This document shows, one piece after another, positions 42,726 through 49,028 of a stretch of 64,000 bases of DNA (within the stretch, counting starts at the first letter, position 1; each line of letters opens with the position of its first letter). The notes beneath the pieces were generated by a model that was not told where the DNA came from, made no database searches, and was given only the letters and a program-made list of their open reading frames with translations. The stretch comes from Gammaproteobacteria bacterium (lineage in GTDB: Bacteria; Pseudomonadota; Gammaproteobacteria; Tenderiales; Tenderiaceae), in NCBI GenBank assembly GCA_016200485.1, contig JACQEP010000001.1, positions 9,901-73,900 on the forward strand, in the 5' to 3' direction. A program made the translations under genes and the position numbers.

Positions 42726-44306
42726 TTAATGTTCCCGCGTAGCGAGAAATTTGATCTCCGGCCAGCGTTCCATCGTCAGCCCAAGATTAACTTTCGTCGG
42801 TGCAATGTAGACCAACAGATCGGCCCCATCCAGCGCCAGATTATCTGCCGCCTTCAGCTTGAATTCCGCCAACTTCTTCGGATCATCGCAGACCACCCAA
42901 CGGGCGGTAGCCACTTGCACCGGTTCGAATACACATTCAACCTTGTATTCATCTTTCAACCGATGCGCAACCACATCAAACTGCAACACCCCCACCGCAC
43001 CCAAAATCAGATCGTTACGATTGAGCGGTTTAAACAATTGGGTTGCGCCTTCTTCGCACAATTGCTGCAAGCCTTTTTGCAGGGCCTTCATTTTCATTGG
43101 ATCGCGCAACTGGGCACGACGAAACAGTTCCGGCGCGAAATTGGGGATACCGGTAAACTTCAACTCTTCGCCTTCGCTGAAGGCATCGCCGATCTGAATC
43201 GTACCGTGATTGTGTAACCCGATGATGTCACCGGGATAGGCCTCTTCGACATGCTCGCGCTCCGAAGCCATGAAGGTGATGGCATTGGAAATCTGCACAT
43301 CACGCCCGATACGTACATGGCGCATTTTCATCCCCTTGTGATAACTGCCGGAACATACGCGCAAAAAGGCGACACGATCGCGATGTTGCGGGTCCATATT
43401 TGCCTGAATCTTGAACACGAAGCCGCTGAATTTCTCTTCGTCCGGCAACACCATGCGCGATTCCGCCTGCCGTGGCTGCGGCGGCGGCGCCCATTCGGCG
43501 AAGGCATCCAGTAATTCTTTAATGCCGAAGTTGTTGATCGCGGAACCAAAAAATACCGGCGTTACTTCACCACGGCGATAGGCGTCAAAATCAAATTCAT
43601 TGCTGGCACCGCGCACCAGCTCGATCTCGTCACGCACCTCAGCGGCAAATCTGCCCCACAGCTCATCCAGACGTGGATTATCCAAACCCTCAATCACCTC
43701 ACCCTGTTGAATCTTGCCACCATGCGTGGCGCTGAACAGATGAATACTGTCGTCGTACAGATGAAATACGCCCTTGAAGCCCTTGCCCATGCCGATCGGC
43801 CAGGTGATCGGCGCACAACGAATCTTGAGGATGCGCTCAACCTCATCCAGCAATTCAATCGGTTCGCGGCCTTCGCGATCCAGCTTGTTGATGAAGGTGA
43901 TGATCGGCGTATCGCGCAGCCGGCAAACTTCCATCAATTTAATCGTGCGTTCTTCAACACCCTTGGCGCTGTCGATCACCATCAGCGCCGAGTCCACTGC
44001 CGTCAGGGTGCGGTAGGTATCCTCGGAGAAATCTTCATGCCCTGGCGTGTCGAGCAAGTTGATGATCTTGCCGTTATGCGGGAACTGCATCACCGAAGTG
44101 GTGACGGAGATTCCGCGTTGCTTTTCCAGCTCCATCCAGTCCGAGGTTGCATGCCGCGCTGCCTTACGGCCCTTGACGGTTCCGGCAAGCTGAATGGCCC
44201 CCCCAAATAACAACAGCTTTTCGGTCAAAGTGGTCTTACCCGCATCGGGGTGGGAGATGATGGCAAAGGTACGACGCCGCTGCGCCTGTTCAAGATATTT
44301 AGACAT
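42726..44306 (-). CDS. prfC: Peptide chain release factor 3
   Basis: 526 aa with the GTPase motifs [26 protein letters not shown] and NKLD, and overall RF3 colinearity. Confidence 0.95.
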
Positions 44307-44402
44307 GCTTGAGATTAAGTGATTACTAAATTTAAATGGGGTCTAATTTTACCTGTTTTTGCTTGAATTTTCCCGATCAATTCCATCCCAACCCGCCAAG
44401 GT

Positions 44403-44451
44403 TTGACATTCCTAAAAAAGCCAATTAACATGTATTCTTAATACATGTTAA
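44403..44451 (+). promoter_or_regulatory. Sigma70-like promoter overlapped by a 27-bp palindrome resembling an NsrR operator
   Basis: TTGACA (44403-44408), N17, TAACAT (44426-44431). The palindrome TTAACATGTATT-CTT-AATACATGTTAA spans 44425-44451, with perfect 12-bp arms. It lies about 100 nt upstream of glbN. Confidence 0.5.
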
Positions 44452-44549
44452 GCTGATCCCGTAAACAGACGATAGCTTCAGGCAATCACATCGTTTTGCG
44501 GCCGACCTTGCTTATCGGCCGCTCCACTAAACCAAAAAGGAGACTATGC

Positions 44550-44915
44550 ATGAGTAGCTTGTACGATCAACTGGGCGGCGACGCCGCCGTTAACGCCGCT
44601 GTCGACATCTTCTATCGCAAGGTGCTGGCCGACAAACGTATCAATCACTGGTTCAAAGACACCGACATGGCCAAACAGGCGTCCAAGCAAAAAGCCTTTC
44701 TGACCATGGCCCTGGGCGGTCCCAACAAATATTCCGGCAAAGATATGCGTGAGGGTCATGCCCATCTGGTCAAGAAGGGCCTGAGCGACAAAGACTTCGA
44801 CGCCGTGCTGGAGAATCTTGGCGCCACCCTGAAAGAACTCAAGGTACCCGATAATCTTATCGCCCAAGCCGCCAAACTGGTTGAAAGCACTCGTAAAGAT
44901 GTCCTAGGCCGTTAA
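44550..44915 (+). CDS. glbN: Group I truncated haemoglobin (trHbN)
   Basis: MSSLYDQLGGDAAVNAAVDIFYRKVLAD...FLTMALGGPNKYSGKDMREGHAHL carries the 2-on-2 globin pattern (B10 Tyr, proximal His). The ATG at 44550 is preceded by AGGAG. The ORF-track start at 44496 adds 18 basic residues and is unlikely. Confidence 0.85.
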   Translation: MSSLYDQLGGDAAVNAAVDIFYRKVLADKRINHWFKDTDMAKQASKQKAFLTMALGGPNKYSGKDMREGHAHLVKKGLSDKDFDAVLENLGATLKELKVPDNLIAQAAKLVESTRKDVLGR

Positions 44916-44932
44916 TGTAGCCCCCCAATCCC

Positions 44933-45901
44933 ATGCCGAAAGTCAGACTCGGAGATCACGAATATCTCCTCGCGGAAAATGAGTCGATACTCCAGGGTCT
45001 GACCCGGCATGGGGTTACCATTCCATCCTCGTGCCAGAAAGGGATATGCCAGACCTGTCTGATGCGTGCCATTGCCGGCACACCCCCGGCGGAATGTCAG
45101 GAAGGACTTAGCCCCACGCAAAAACAACAGGGCTATTTTCTTGCCTGTAGCTGCAAGCCGAAAACTGATTTGACGATCGCCCTCCTCGACGACAGCGCGC
45201 GCAACAAGATGCAGGCACGCATCACTGACAAGACCCTGCTCAGCCCAAGCATTATGCGCCTGCGCTTGCAGCCCGAAAAATCGTTCGATTATCGCGCGGG
45301 TCAGTTCTTGAATCTGCATCGGCCTGATGGATTGATTCGCAGTTATTCTATCGCCAGCATCCCTAGCGAGCCCTTTCTCGAACTACACATTGAGCGCCTT
45401 GATAACGGCAAGATGAGTGGCTGGATTCACGATGAGGTCACTGTGAATACCGAGGTTGAGATCGATGGCGCCCACGGCAATTGTTTTTATCTCGAAGGCA
45501 ATCCCGAACAACCGCTGCTGCTGATTGGTACGGGATCTGGGTTGGCGCCATTATGGGGCATTTTGCGCGATGCCTTGGCGCACAATCACCAAGGTGACAT
45601 CCATTTGTTTCATGGTTCACACAGCCGGGACAAACTCTATCTGGGTGAAGCATTACGCCAATTAGCGCGCGACTATCCCCAAGTTCACTACACCCCCTGC
45701 CTCTCTGGCAGCGAACAACACGGCTATGCCCATGGCCGCGCCAATGAGCTTGCGCTTGCGCAACTAGGGTCATTAAAAGGTTGGCGAATATTTTTGTGCG
45801 GCCATCCGGAGATGGTCAAAAACACGCAAATGGAGGCTTTTCTGGCAGGCGCCTCGATGCAGGATATCTACGCCGATCCGTTCACGATCAGCGCAAGCTG
45901 A
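44933..45901 (+). CDS. Ferredoxin--NAD(P) reductase-type flavoprotein with an N-terminal plant-type 2Fe-2S domain
   Basis: 322 aa with the cluster motif C-x4-C-x2-C...C (SSCQKGICQTC...ACSC), FAD motif RSYSIAS and NAD(P) motif LLLIGTGSGLAPL. It has BenC/MMO-reductase-like architecture and starts 17 nt after glbN. Confidence 0.8.
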   Translation: MPKVRLGDHEYLLAENESILQGLTRHGVTIPSSCQKGICQTCLMRAIAGTPPAECQEGLSPTQKQQGYFLACSCKPKTDLTIALLDDSARNKMQARITDKTLLSPSIMRLRLQPEKSFDYRAGQFLNLHRPDGLIRSYSIASIPSEPFLELHIERLDNGKMSGWIHDEVTVNTEVEIDGAHGNCFYLEGNPEQPLLLIGTGSGLAPLWGILRDALAHNHQGDIHLFHGSHSRDKLYLGEALRQLARDYPQVHYTPCLSGSEQHGYAHGRANELALAQLGSLKGWRIFLCGHPEMVKNTQMEAFLAGASMQDIYADPFTISAS

Positions 45902-45903
45902 AC

Positions 45904-46518
45904 CTAACCCGCTTCTTGGTCGATATCGTCCGCAAGGTTTGACTGTTTTACATCCGTATTATTTTCAACATCACGCCGCCACGGATATTCCTGTCCCAAA
46001 AGCCTGTTGATTACAACAGCGGATATGAGCAGTATCAGCACATTCAACATCACTGGCGCCAGCACAAACCAGTAACCTAGCGAATGAATGCTGTTCCCAC
46101 CAATCACTGCCGAAATTGCTGCCGCACCACCAGGTGGATGCAAACTGCGGGTCAGCAACATCAATAAAATCGCGCCCGCCACCGCCACAGCGCCCGCCAG
46201 CATGTGATTGGGAATGTACTGGGCACAGGTCACACCAACTGTCACAGAGACCAGGTGCCCCATAAATACCGGGTAGGGCTGAACCAGAGGGCTATGAGGC
46301 GCAGCGAACAATAGCACCCCCGCTGCTCCCATTGAGGCTACCAAAATTGGTACATCCTGCCCCGACAATACCGAAGCGCTGACCATGAACACCGCCACTT
46401 GCGCCAGAAAGGCTCCCAGCACCGGGATCAGGATTTCCTTCATGGAACGTTTTGGAATTACGTCCATCCCCAACCAGGATGCACAGGCGCAAAACCAGCC
46501 TCGCTTTGGTTTGGTCAA
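45904..46518 (-). CDS. HPP-family integral membrane protein (family includes nitrite transporters)
   Basis: 204 aa, about 4-5 TM helices, with the eponymous SLHPPGGAAA motif. The start could be an internal Met (MDV... or MKE...). Confidence 0.75.
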   Translation of the reverse strand: MTKPKRGWFCACASWLGMDVIPKRSMKEILIPVLGAFLAQVAVFMVSASVLSGQDVPILVASMGAAGVLLFAAPHSPLVQPYPVFMGHLVSVTVGVTCAQYIPNHMLAGAVAVAGAILLMLLTRSLHPPGGAAAISAVIGGNSIHSLGYWFVLAPVMLNVLILLISAVVINRLLGQEYPWRRDVENNTDVKQSNLADDIDQEAG

Positions 46519-46817
46519 TTAAACGCTCCTAATTCGAATATTTAAAGTTAGATATAAAATATCAATTTCTATCCCCTTCCCAAATTTTTATCGACCGCTT
46601 TTCAACATCCTAAACATCCATCAAAGAATTAAAGTTTTAAACGGTTCTTCCGAAACCCTATTTAGTAGCATGAAATCACTAATTTACATATCGCAACATA
46701 TAGAAATTACCGTTCGTGCCTCATACTCGCACGAACGAAGTCGATGCATCATCAGCAGTTGCAAACTGAATAAAACGGACTACGTTCGACGAACAACACA
46801 GGGATAGGACAAGATTC

Positions 46818-48047
46818 ATGCAGCACCAGGATCAACAACCTTGGCTCAAACCAGTTGCAACGCTCATGGCGACACTTGGTTGCCGCCACTTCGTGACGTT
46901 GACCGGCATTTACGTCATCACAATTATCACAGTACTGGGTTTGATGACACTTGGAATATTGGCTTCACCGTCGCCAACTGATCTTGGTACCTTCATCATT
47001 CTGTCAGTTACATCGATTATTTACCTGCTGTGTGGCTTTCTTGACTATCTTCGCACCCAGGTCTGTGCGCTTAGCGCGCAGGCGCGTGAACTTTCCGCTG
47101 GCCAGTTCGGCAATGTAACTTACTCCACGGGCAACGACGAATTGAGCATGTTCCAGAACTGCCTGGCACAACTGGCGAAAGATCTGGAACGTATGCTCAA
47201 CCGAATTGGCGAAGCCGCAACCGAGTCCCATGCCGCAGCGCGGGCCGAAACCGAGATCACCAAACGTACGTCCGCAAGCGCCACCAATCAGGCAGCCCGC
47301 GTCTCAGAAATCGCCACTGCAATCGAACAAATGTCCGCCAGCATCAACGAAGTCGCAGACCAGATAAAAGTCACTGAACACAATGCCAAAACAACTCAAG
47401 ACCTGGCCAATCAAGGCACCGCCATTATCCACGACACCGTCAACTCGGTACACAGCATTGCTGATACCGTCAGTCAGGCCGCAACACAGGTTACAGCGCT
47501 GAGCGAGCACTCAAAAGAGATCGGGAAAATTATTGATGTTATCGAAGGCATATCTTCACAAACCAACCTCTTGGCTTTAAATGCCGCGATTGAAGCTGCC
47601 CGCGCCGGCGAGCATGGTCGAGGATTTGCTGTCGTATCGGACGAAGTACGGCAGCTTGCAATCCGTACCCATGAAGCCACTGAAAAAGTCAGCACCATGA
47701 TCACTGGCGTGCAAGGCGAAGTTGGCAAAATCATCAACAGTTTCCGCAGCATCGAAGGTGAAGTCACACGCAGCACCGAGATGGGCGACCATGTTAATCA
47801 AATGCTGTCTTCGATCAATGATGGTGCCAATACAACCGCCAACCATATGCATAGCGCGGCGATCGCAATCACCGAGCAATCCTCTGTCTGCGCCGACATT
47901 GCCCGCAATATCGAGCACATCAGTCAACTCGCGATCGGCGCCAGCGCTGATGCCGGCGAAACACTGGATACCTCACTCTATCTTGAGTCACTCTCGAACC
48001 AGGTGCTACATCAATTAACCGGCCAGTCAGCGGCTGAGGGGCAATAG
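46818..48047 (+). CDS. Methyl-accepting chemotaxis protein lacking a periplasmic ligand-binding domain
   Basis: 409 aa with two TM helices separated by only ~8 residues (SPSPTDLG), a HAMP-like linker, and an MCP signalling hairpin ([36 protein letters not shown]). Confidence 0.9.
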
Positions 48048-48050
48048 CAG

Positions 48051-49028
48051 ATGGCAATGACAGCCTCATTATTGTTCACATTAATTTTCTTCGGTTGCAT
48101 CATCTTTCTCTGGCGCCAACGCCAACAGGTCGTCTATTTGGAAACTATTATCCGAGGGATGAGCCATGTCGAACTCGCCCGCAATCTACTGGAACATCTG
48201 CCGCAACATCGCGGCATGGCCAATGCGCTGCTGAATGGCGATAAAAGCTTCCAGGAAAAAGCCTGTACGATGCAATCCACCATTGATCGTGACCTGGAAG
48301 CGCTTAAAACCGCCATCAGCAGCAATGCCGGACAATCAGTCATCAATACTCATCAGACGCAACTGGAAACAGGCTGGAAAAGCCTGAAAAGTGATCTCAA
48401 GGGATTAAGCGCTGCCAGTAGCTTTGAGCGCCATACCGCCTTGATAACACAGGTAATCTATCTCATCAGTGATATCGCCGATGAAATGAGAATCACGGCC
48501 TACCCGGATGAAACCATGCGCCCTATCGTGCATGCCAATTTAATGGTTTTGCCAACCATGGTCGAAATTTCCGGCCAGGCGCGAGGCATTGGCGCTGGCG
48601 TCGCAGCCAAAGGCAAAATCACAACTGCACTCCGCATCAAAATCAAATTTCTCCACGAACATCTTAATACCGCCCTGCTCGATGCCCACCGTACCATCGA
48701 AACCAGTCTCAATCGAGTTAAGGACAAACTTCATTTTGATCTTTCCTCGCTCCAGGCCAGCCGCACAGCCACTCAGCGATTGCTTGACACCATCAAAGAC
48801 CAGTTACTCAAGGAGGAAGCCATCAGCATCTCGGCCTCGGACTATTTTGCCATCGGCTCGGCAGCATTCGACAATAATCTCCGGCTCTTTGATCAACTGA
48901 CCCAAGCGTTAAAGAAGGATTTACAGCAACGCGCACCCTCCCTCAAATCCGCCCATCTGCGGTCGATATTCTTCTGTGCAGGGCTGATGGCGGCCTCATC
49001 TGCCACTGGCTGGTGGTTACTGAGTTAG
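48051..49028 (+). CDS. Stand-alone NIT (nitrate/nitrite-sensing)-like domain protein bracketed by N- and C-terminal TM helices
   Basis: 325 aa. TM1 spans about residues 5-21 and the last TM about 305-323. The ~280-aa region between them has NIT-like landmarks (LPQHRGMANALLNGDKSF, HTALITQVIYLISDIA, VEISGQARGIGAGVAAKG, SASDYFAIGSAAFDNNL). There is no output domain. The start is 3 nt after the MCP stop. Confidence 0.7.
   Translation: MAMTASLLFTLIFFGCIIFLWRQRQQVVYLETIIRGMSHVELARNLLEHLPQHRGMANALLNGDKSFQEKACTMQSTIDRDLEALKTAISSNAGQSVINTHQTQLETGWKSLKSDLKGLSAASSFERHTALITQVIYLISDIADEMRITAYPDETMRPIVHANLMVLPTMVEISGQARGIGAGVAAKGKITTALRIKIKFLHEHLNTALLDAHRTIETSLNRVKDKLHFDLSSLQASRTATQRLLDTIKDQLLKEEAISISASDYFAIGSAAFDNNLRLFDQLTQALKKDLQQRAPSLKSAHLRSIFFCAGLMAASSATGWWLLS

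Follow-up and report, generated by a model that had tools for sequence, protein, structure and literature searches.

A truncated haemoglobin gene and its adjacent ferredoxin-type reductase gene in a Tenderiaceae genome: a probable split, NsrR-controlled nitric oxide dioxygenase

The closest described counterpart of the genes analyzed here is the glbN-lpg2536 operon of Legionella pneumophila, an organism that has no hmp, hcp, dnrN, or nnrS, in which the operon was predicted by comparative genomics to be the sole target of NsrR (Rodionov et al. 2005, PMC1274295). In the same work its products were proposed to oxidize nitric oxide (NO) in the manner of the flavohaemoglobin Hmp (PMC1274295), and the prediction was later restated by Gardner (2012), who extended it to FNR-like electron donors for truncated haemoglobins (trHbs) in general (PMC3820574, section 11.7). 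Our subject is a similar pair of genes in a 64,000-nucleotide stretch of DNA from a gammaproteobacterium of the family Tenderiaceae (assembly GCA_016200485.1, contig JACQEP010000001.1, positions 9,901 to 73,900), hereafter called the window: glbN, for a group I trHb (trHbN), and, directly downstream of it, a gene for a reductase with a plant-type [2Fe-2S] ferredoxin domain. The physiological reductase of trHbN is, to our knowledge, usually described as unknown, and most kinetic work on these proteins has used heterologous reductases. We consider it likely, with a probability of about 0.72, that the two genes form an NsrR-repressed operon encoding a two-component NO dioxygenase. The idea of a trHbN and reductase split between two proteins is not new (it was predicted in 2005 and restated in 2012), and the locus is a further case of the widespread design predicted in the earlier of these papers.

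The first gene encodes a protein that matches the Bac_globin family PF01152 over residues 3–118 (2.6e-19), in agreement with the initial annotation, which had placed a group I trHb gene here. Its best solved relative is the group 1 trHb of Tetrahymena pyriformis (3AQ5, 1.2e-37), and further solved relatives include the cyanoglobins of Synechocystis and Synechococcus and the trHbs of Chlamydomonas and Paramecium. The top matches in the PDB were group 1 trHbs and cyanoglobins (1.2e-37 to 7.5e-31), with those of groups II and III far weaker, and HbN of Mycobacterium tuberculosis (1IDR) was a more distant match at 1.1e-14. Alignment to 3AQ5, with the distal positions marked by the mutant entries of that structure, identified the pocket residues as Y22 (Tyr B10), F35 (Phe CD1), Q43 (Gln E7), Q47 (Gln E11), and H70 (His F8), and both Gly-Gly hinges were present (G9-G10 and G56-G57). 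A pre-A extension is absent from the protein. Judged by its sequence, the globin is a standard group I trHb (trHbN, or cyanoglobin).

The second gene encodes a protein in which Fer2 (4.3e-12), FAD_binding_6 (2.8e-11), and NAD_binding_1 (3.7e-15) domains were recognized. The [2Fe-2S] ligands C34, C39, C42, and C72 follow the Cys-x4-Cys-x2-Cys...Cys pattern, the flavin motif RxYS is found at R136-S-Y-S139, and the nucleotide motif GxGxxP is found at G199-T-G-S-G-L-A-P206; other conserved residues are C289-G290 and the C-terminal aromatic F317. An alignment of 24 orthologues revealed that the cofactor motifs are invariant or nearly so, and in both the trHb and the reductase the domains and catalytic residues are intact. 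The nearest solved structures are those of GcoB (5OGX), T4moF (4WQM), and BenC (1KRH), then those of CarAd, Fre, and the flavin domain of Hmp (1GVH). The description of the reductase as BenC-type in the initial annotation holds for its architecture and not for its identity. This is because the protein scores below every NCBIfam equivalog cut-off (137 versus 430 bits for BenC, 134 versus 500 for MmoC, 102 versus 402 for AntC, and 215 versus 338 for PRK05713), and an assignment to BenC was rejected on that basis. Membership of Hmp was also rejected, as only the FAD/NAD part of the Hmp model NF009805 was matched (positions 158–381, 4.8e-20), at 72 bits against a cut-off of 432.

The two reading frames are closely spaced. 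That of glbN runs from an ATG at 44550 to a TAA at 44913–44915, with AAAGGAGA just ahead of the ATG as read directly from the sequence, and that of the reductase runs from an ATG at 44933 to a TGA at 45899–45901. The gap between them is 17 nt, and both this distance and the order of ferredoxin and FAD/NAD(P) domains are as first annotated; the coordinates and all other structural details of the initial annotation were likewise confirmed. The two genes are probably co-transcribed, since no terminator-like hairpin was found in 44250–46900 and so none between them.

To determine how far this arrangement is conserved, we searched 301 evenly sampled genomes of the class with the trHb and reductase proteins separately. 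Matches of at least 200 bits were counted as orthologues of the reductase (n = 46, 36–57% identity), as the next matches, at 164 bits or less, belong to paralogous families. In 39 of the 46, the reductase gene shares its strand with a trHbN gene and lies directly 3′ of it, with gaps of roughly 10–170 nt; the rest were three reductases fused to a trHb domain, three without a globin nearby, and one fragment at a contig end. Two more pairs are interrupted by contig ends (L020 and L022), and the unit is present in about 40 of the 301 genomes, which belong to many families. When named genomes were searched with a pattern built from an 8-sequence alignment, 80 loci were obtained, and in 75 of these a trHbN gene is directly 5′ of the reductase gene (two of the other five have no upstream sequence). 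The named hosts include Methylobacter marinus, M. luteus, M. tundripaludum, Methylomonas lenta, Methylococcus capsulatus Texas, Methylocaldum, Candidatus Tenderia, metagenome-assembled genomes of Chromatiaceae, and the Armatimonadota (Chthonomonas), and thus at least two phyla. A second protein search added Legionella pneumophila together with seven more species of its genus, as well as Francisella and Coxiellaceae. Two genomes flagged as unpublished (G039 and G296) are the basis of no claim made here. Because the same order was found in 39/46 sampled orthologues and 75/80 named loci, the adjacency is more than chance; the co-occurrence of trHbN with adjacent ferredoxin-FNR reductases, an analysis of which was proposed when the locus was first annotated, extends well beyond this genome. 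An adjacency confined to this genome, which the initial annotation had named as a finding that would refute its reading, is clearly contradicted. Beside two intact reductase genes, the trHbN gene was observed to be broken by stops or split in two frames (G126:C36:9943-10296 and G298:C4:126017-126374), which may represent decay of the globin or an assembly error.

Natural fusions of the two proteins were also observed. In three sampled genomes, a single frame of 530–540 aa encodes Fer2-FAD-NAD followed by Bac_globin (L016:3731-5353, plus strand; L017:3167-4786 and L018:2665-4257, minus strand). The fused globin region was matched by at least 599 protein clusters (E <= 1e-10), and in nearly all of the 120 matches listed for it the reductase domains were also present, with some having only Fer2 and the globin in short forms of about 300 aa. 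The fusion proteins end in a conserved four-cysteine tail (CxxC...CxxC). When a maximum-likelihood tree was rooted on a paralogue from this genome, the fused reductases fell within the clade of the paired ones. The trHb in the fusions is not the one seen here but a more divergent one, 25–33% identical to the trHbN of the window; what the fusions support is therefore a partnership between the reductase clade and trHbs as a group, and not one with this particular globin. No description of a Fer2-FAD-NAD-trHb fusion was found in our literature search. One of the fusion genes (in L016) adjoins a NirK-like gene.

These data bear on whether the two proteins act together at all. If the adjacency represented co-regulation only, the reductase would pass its electrons to a different acceptor, for example an oxygenase or a further enzyme of the NO-stress response, and would not reduce the globin directly. 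That its closest solved relatives serve P450, toluene monooxygenase, and benzoate dioxygenase systems would fit such a role, as would the three orthologues that stand without a globin. However, neither here nor in the loci examined is the pair flanked by an oxygenase gene, the gene order is kept over many families and at least two phyla, and hundreds of fusion proteins covalently join the reductase clade to a trHb, and we consequently regard this explanation as very unlikely. On balance we slightly favor a broader proposal, that the reductase clade is a dedicated trHb reductase and, with its globin, the main substitute for Hmp in Gammaproteobacteria that lack it (methanotrophs, sulfur oxidizers, Legionella, and Francisella), and that it may also have spawned a large family of “reverse flavohaemoglobins” of ~530 aa, Fer2-FAD-NAD-trHb with the four-cysteine tail. 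If true, the physiological donor of group I trHbs would be encoded next door to them in hundreds of genomes, cultured strains included.

The region upstream of glbN suggests how the pair may be controlled. As first annotated, an NsrR-like box is present there: the palindrome AACATGTATTCTTAATACATGTT (core at 44430–44446) fits the published NsrR core gATGyAT-N5-ATrCATc (PMC1274295) at 12/12 specified core positions, with the flanking g/c of the consensus swapped to c/g. Nowhere else in the 3.06-Mb genome is the core matched perfectly. Since chance alone would yield roughly one such match in 3 Mb, the weight of the box comes from its position and its conservation. The palindrome overlaps the −10 element of the site TTGACA-17-TAACAT, which is likely to be the operon promoter because it lies ~120 nt upstream of glbN and overlaps the palindrome; sigma-70-type sites in the region are no commoner than in shuffled sequence. 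Within 273 kb of sampled loci there were 10 perfect ATGyAT-N5-ATrCAT matches, all at most 190 nt upstream of a trHb gene. A perfect box precedes glbN in 9/20 sampled pairs and 25/75 named pairs, and a box with at most one mismatch in 14/20 and 39/75, respectively. One of four Rrf2 genes in the genome (G000:C20, L003:1453-1902) has NsrR as its best model. In 30 of the 80 named loci, and also in the sampled loci L022, L040, L042, L044, and L046, an orthologue of this NsrR-like gene lies no more than 2.5 kb from the pair, often divergent from glbN.

Boxes of the same type were found at two other places in the genome, both outside the window. The second-best genome match to the palindrome is 177 nt upstream of a NirK-like gene (G000:C8) for a two-domain multicopper oxidase, which is followed by a cytochrome c gene (L005:3220-4323 and L005:4313-5008, both on the plus strand); the NirK-like gene is likely a co-regulated source of NO. 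A gene for a tandem di-trHbN of 268 aa (L006:2144-2950, minus strand; G000:C21:67643-68449), each domain of which is about 71–72% identical to the trHbN of the window, has an NsrR-like box some 55 nt upstream, with a single mismatch in the core. Similar tandem di-trHbN genes were seen in G068, G085, and G266. Together, glbN-reductase, NirK, and di-trHbN make up a candidate small NsrR-type regulon in this genome. Other one-mismatch sites, ahead of a C39-peptidase ABC exporter and two unannotated open reading frames, look like chance and were not counted. The gene for an HPP-family membrane protein that converges on the operon was considered as a member and rejected, as it has no NsrR-like box upstream (the best candidate has four mismatches).

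The presence of the same box type ahead of a NirK-like nitrite reductase suggests expression during nitrite reduction, typically at low oxygen, and so raises the possibility that the pair does most of its work when oxygen is low or absent, reducing NO or handling nitrite (which the ferrous haem would reduce), with the reductase still recharging the haem. Genes for HPP (a putative nitrite channel), NIT-sensor, and MCP proteins recur beside the pair, and NO dioxygenase and NO reductase activity have both been seen in vitro for other haemoglobins (PMC11836069). However, the Tyr B10/Gln E7/Gln E11 pocket is the one linked to NO dioxygenation in group I trHbs (PMC3820574), and the hosts of the pair include obligate aerobes such as methanotrophs and Legionella. 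NO dioxygenation and low-oxygen reactions of NO or nitrite are not told apart by the sequence evidence; we consider a mainly low-oxygen role unlikely.

A role in oxygen metabolism was weighed in the light of the other globins of this genome. Up to three single-domain 3-on-3 globins, one of them confirmed by PF00042, and a fourth, distant trHb (C25:63268-63594) are encoded besides the pair (L129, L131, and L132, at G000:C2:132919-133308, C16:34165-34554, and C12:14886-15143, and L135:1860-2318, minus strand), and the set of globins is unusually rich for a 3-Mb genome. The globin of the pair might mainly buffer O2 or deliver it, e.g., to terminal oxidases or monooxygenases, or act as a peroxidase, in which case its partner would be a met-haemoglobin reductase and NO detoxification would be secondary. 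Besides the several other globins, it speaks for such a role that many hosts are methanotrophs, that trHbs (of groups II and III) have been proposed to bring O2 to methane monooxygenase (PMC11102522), and that a group I trHb was among the top ten transcripts of a Methyloprofundus culture (PMC8788690). The authors of the latter study took the high trHb expression as a response to NO, however (PMC8788690), the conserved NsrR-type operator and adjacent NsrR-like genes indicate NO and not O2 as the signal, and the co-regulated candidates in this genome are NO-related. An oxygen-related role is thus, in our opinion, quite unlikely.

We hypothesize that the NsrR-repressed, two-component NO dioxygenase would work as follows. 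Without NO, the NsrR-like Rrf2 repressor, for which the gene in contig C20 is the candidate, would sit on the palindrome over the −10 element, and NO would damage its Fe-S cluster and so release it. Oxy-ferrous trHbN would then turn NO into nitrate and be left in the ferric state, and the reductase would restore ferrous trHbN by passing electrons from NAD(P)H through FAD and [2Fe-2S] to the haem. In doing so it would fill the role of the fused flavin domain of Hmp, with one additional Fe-S relay. That NsrR represses the operon, that electrons pass directly from the reductase to the globin, that the pair dioxygenates NO in the cell, and that NO induces it are all predictions drawn from sequence. 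The split flavohaemoglobin-like module proposed in the initial annotation gains support from the gene order, the fusions, and the recurrence of NsrR boxes and NsrR-like genes. Overall, a split, Hmp-like NO dioxygenase appears well supported by the comparative evidence, and the mechanism outlined is plausible.

Several observations weigh against this conclusion. The 17-nt spacer ahead of the reductase start shows nothing that resembles a Shine-Dalgarno sequence. A perfect NsrR core is expected by chance ~0.7 times per genome (an estimate) and one was seen, so its presence alone is weak evidence, and the NsrR-like candidate scores 138 bits against an NsrR equivalog cut-off of 182 and is unlinked to the pair here. 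The three orthologous reductases without a detectable globin (L023–L025) and trHbN genes of the same clade without such a reductase (G044, within nirB-glbN-nirD-nasA, and L010/L011, beside HPP) also count on this side, and the latter indicate that the globin can use other donors. Full-length Hmp was found in 15 of the 301 sampled genomes, none of which carries the pair, but this overlap of 0 versus about 2 expected is not significant, and related genomes are not independent; a complementary distribution of the pair and Hmp is suggestive only. Finally, no biochemical or expression test of any member of the trHbN-reductase pair was found in our literature search.

Some related observations were made along the way. 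In genome G044, a trHbN gene of the same clade (58% identity) is inside an assimilatory nirB-glbN-nirD(Rieske)-nasA cluster (L007:1402-6497) without a Fer2-FNR reductase, and the globin is presumably served there by the flavoprotein of the nitrite/nitrate reductase. Within the genus g67, G263 (Francisella-like, 97% identity to a named protein) has the pair and G065 has a full-length Hmp instead. The “novel haemoglobin” of Acinetobacter baumannii (PMC11836069) was considered as a test of the pair and rejected, as it is a 3-on-3 globin with a different reductase.

The features of the locus are collected in Table 1. To the left of glbN are prfC (divergent) and valS, and to the right of the HPP gene are genes for an MCP, a NIT-domain protein, and an MshE/PilB-type ATPase. 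A GC-rich inverted repeat, noted by eye in the glbN 5′ leader at 44498–44522 (GCGGCCGA, a 9-nt loop, and TCGGCCGC), sits between the operator and the glbN ribosome-binding site.

Table 1. Features of the glbN-reductase locus, with positions in the window.
Feature	Position	Strand	Basis
Sigma-70-type promoter-like site, TTGACA-17-TAACAT	44403..44431	+	10/12 consensus positions; consensus match only
NsrR-type operator, 23-bp palindrome, core ATGTAT-N5-ATACAT	44427..44449	no strand	perfect match to published core
glbN, group I truncated haemoglobin, 121 aa	44550..44915	+	PF01152, structure relatives, and pocket residues
Intergenic spacer, 17 nt, without terminator-like site	44916..44932	+	sequence reading and terminator scan
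Partner reductase, 322 aa, plant-type [2Fe-2S] ferredoxin (N-terminal) with FNR-like FAD and NAD(P)H domains	44933..45901	+	Pfam, motifs
HPP-family membrane protein (putative nitrite channel), convergent	45904..46518	−	PF04982, 6.2e-46

The HPP gene has 204 codons, and its stop is 2 nt from that of the reductase gene, as the initial annotation had it. Its product matches PF04982 over 156/157 model positions. An HPP gene is found within 2.5 kb of the pair in 8/80 named loci and also in L033 and L034, and is therefore a recurrent, not a constant, neighbor. In L010 and L011, it directly follows a trHbN gene on the same strand, without the reductase. Genes for HPP, a sensor-less MCP, and a NIT-domain protein recur together beside trHbN in L010 and L011 (G107 and G289), in L033 and L034 (G287 and G104), and in the window at 45904–49028. 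Among HPP proteins, only those of cyanobacteria and plastids are known to transport nitrite (cited in PMC7438415).

No flavohaemoglobin above the Hmp model cut-off was found in this 100%-complete genome, in which only separate globin-like or reductase-like pieces match, and the pair is the probable NO-detoxifying system of the organism. It would also provide a natural donor-acceptor couple for trHbN, one that occurs in cultured Methylobacter, Methylomonas, Methylococcus capsulatus, and Legionella (and in Francisella, by identity to one named protein). Such culturable hosts make the question of the trHbN reductase, and with it the prediction of 2005, directly testable. The finding adds breadth to a known idea and no new principle, and its place is best seen by comparison with the systems already described.

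GcoB, T4moF, and BenC have the same domain order and cofactor motifs as the reductase of the window, whereas in their systems the partner is an oxygenase; no oxygenase partner gene is present here, and the partner is a globin. In the nitrate-assimilation cluster of Bradyrhizobium, a single-domain haemoglobin, Bjgb, is reportedly encoded with a separate flavoprotein, Flp, and linked to NO detoxification. Bjgb-Flp differs from our pair in the class of its globin, in the family of its reductase, and in its regulation, and the trHbN of the nirB-glbN-nirD-nasA cluster in G044 is the closer analogue. Hmp likewise joins a haem globin to an FNR-type FAD/NAD(P)H module, is often under NsrR control, and has the same proposed chemistry. 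In Hmp, however, these parts form one polypeptide with a 3-on-3 globin, whereas here there are two polypeptides, the globin is a 2-on-2 truncated one, and an extra plant-type [2Fe-2S] domain is placed between flavin and haem. The natural fusions also reverse the order of Hmp, as they begin with the reductase and have the globin at the C-terminus.

Like the trHbN of the window, HbN of M. tuberculosis belongs to group I of the trHbs and carries Tyr B10 and Gln E11; it has an established role in protection from NO (PMC3820574). It is much more distant from the trHbN of the window than are the cyanoglobins and ciliate trHbs and has no adjacent dedicated reductase, and it has been suggested that HbN is helped to contact a ferredoxin reductase by its pre-A extension (PMC3820574). 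The greatest likeness is to the Legionella glbN-lpg2536 operon, in which a group I trHb (“cyanoglobin”) gene is again followed by a ferredoxin-reductase gene, with an NsrR box ahead and no hmp in the genome. A 318-aa Fer2/FAD/NAD protein of L. pneumophila (P0171) is 39% identical to the window reductase over its full length (6e-76) and groups with the paired orthologues in the tree with 100/100 support; P0171 is not confirmed as lpg2536 itself. A Legionella-like genome (L022) has the order nsrR, box, glbN, and reductase, and the case for Legionella orthology is made by the identity, the tree, and this locus. In contrast to Legionella, the NsrR-like gene of the Tenderiaceae genome is unlinked (contig C20), the candidate NsrR targets also include the NirK-like gene and the tandem di-trHbN, so that glbN is not the sole target, and an HPP gene converges on the operon.

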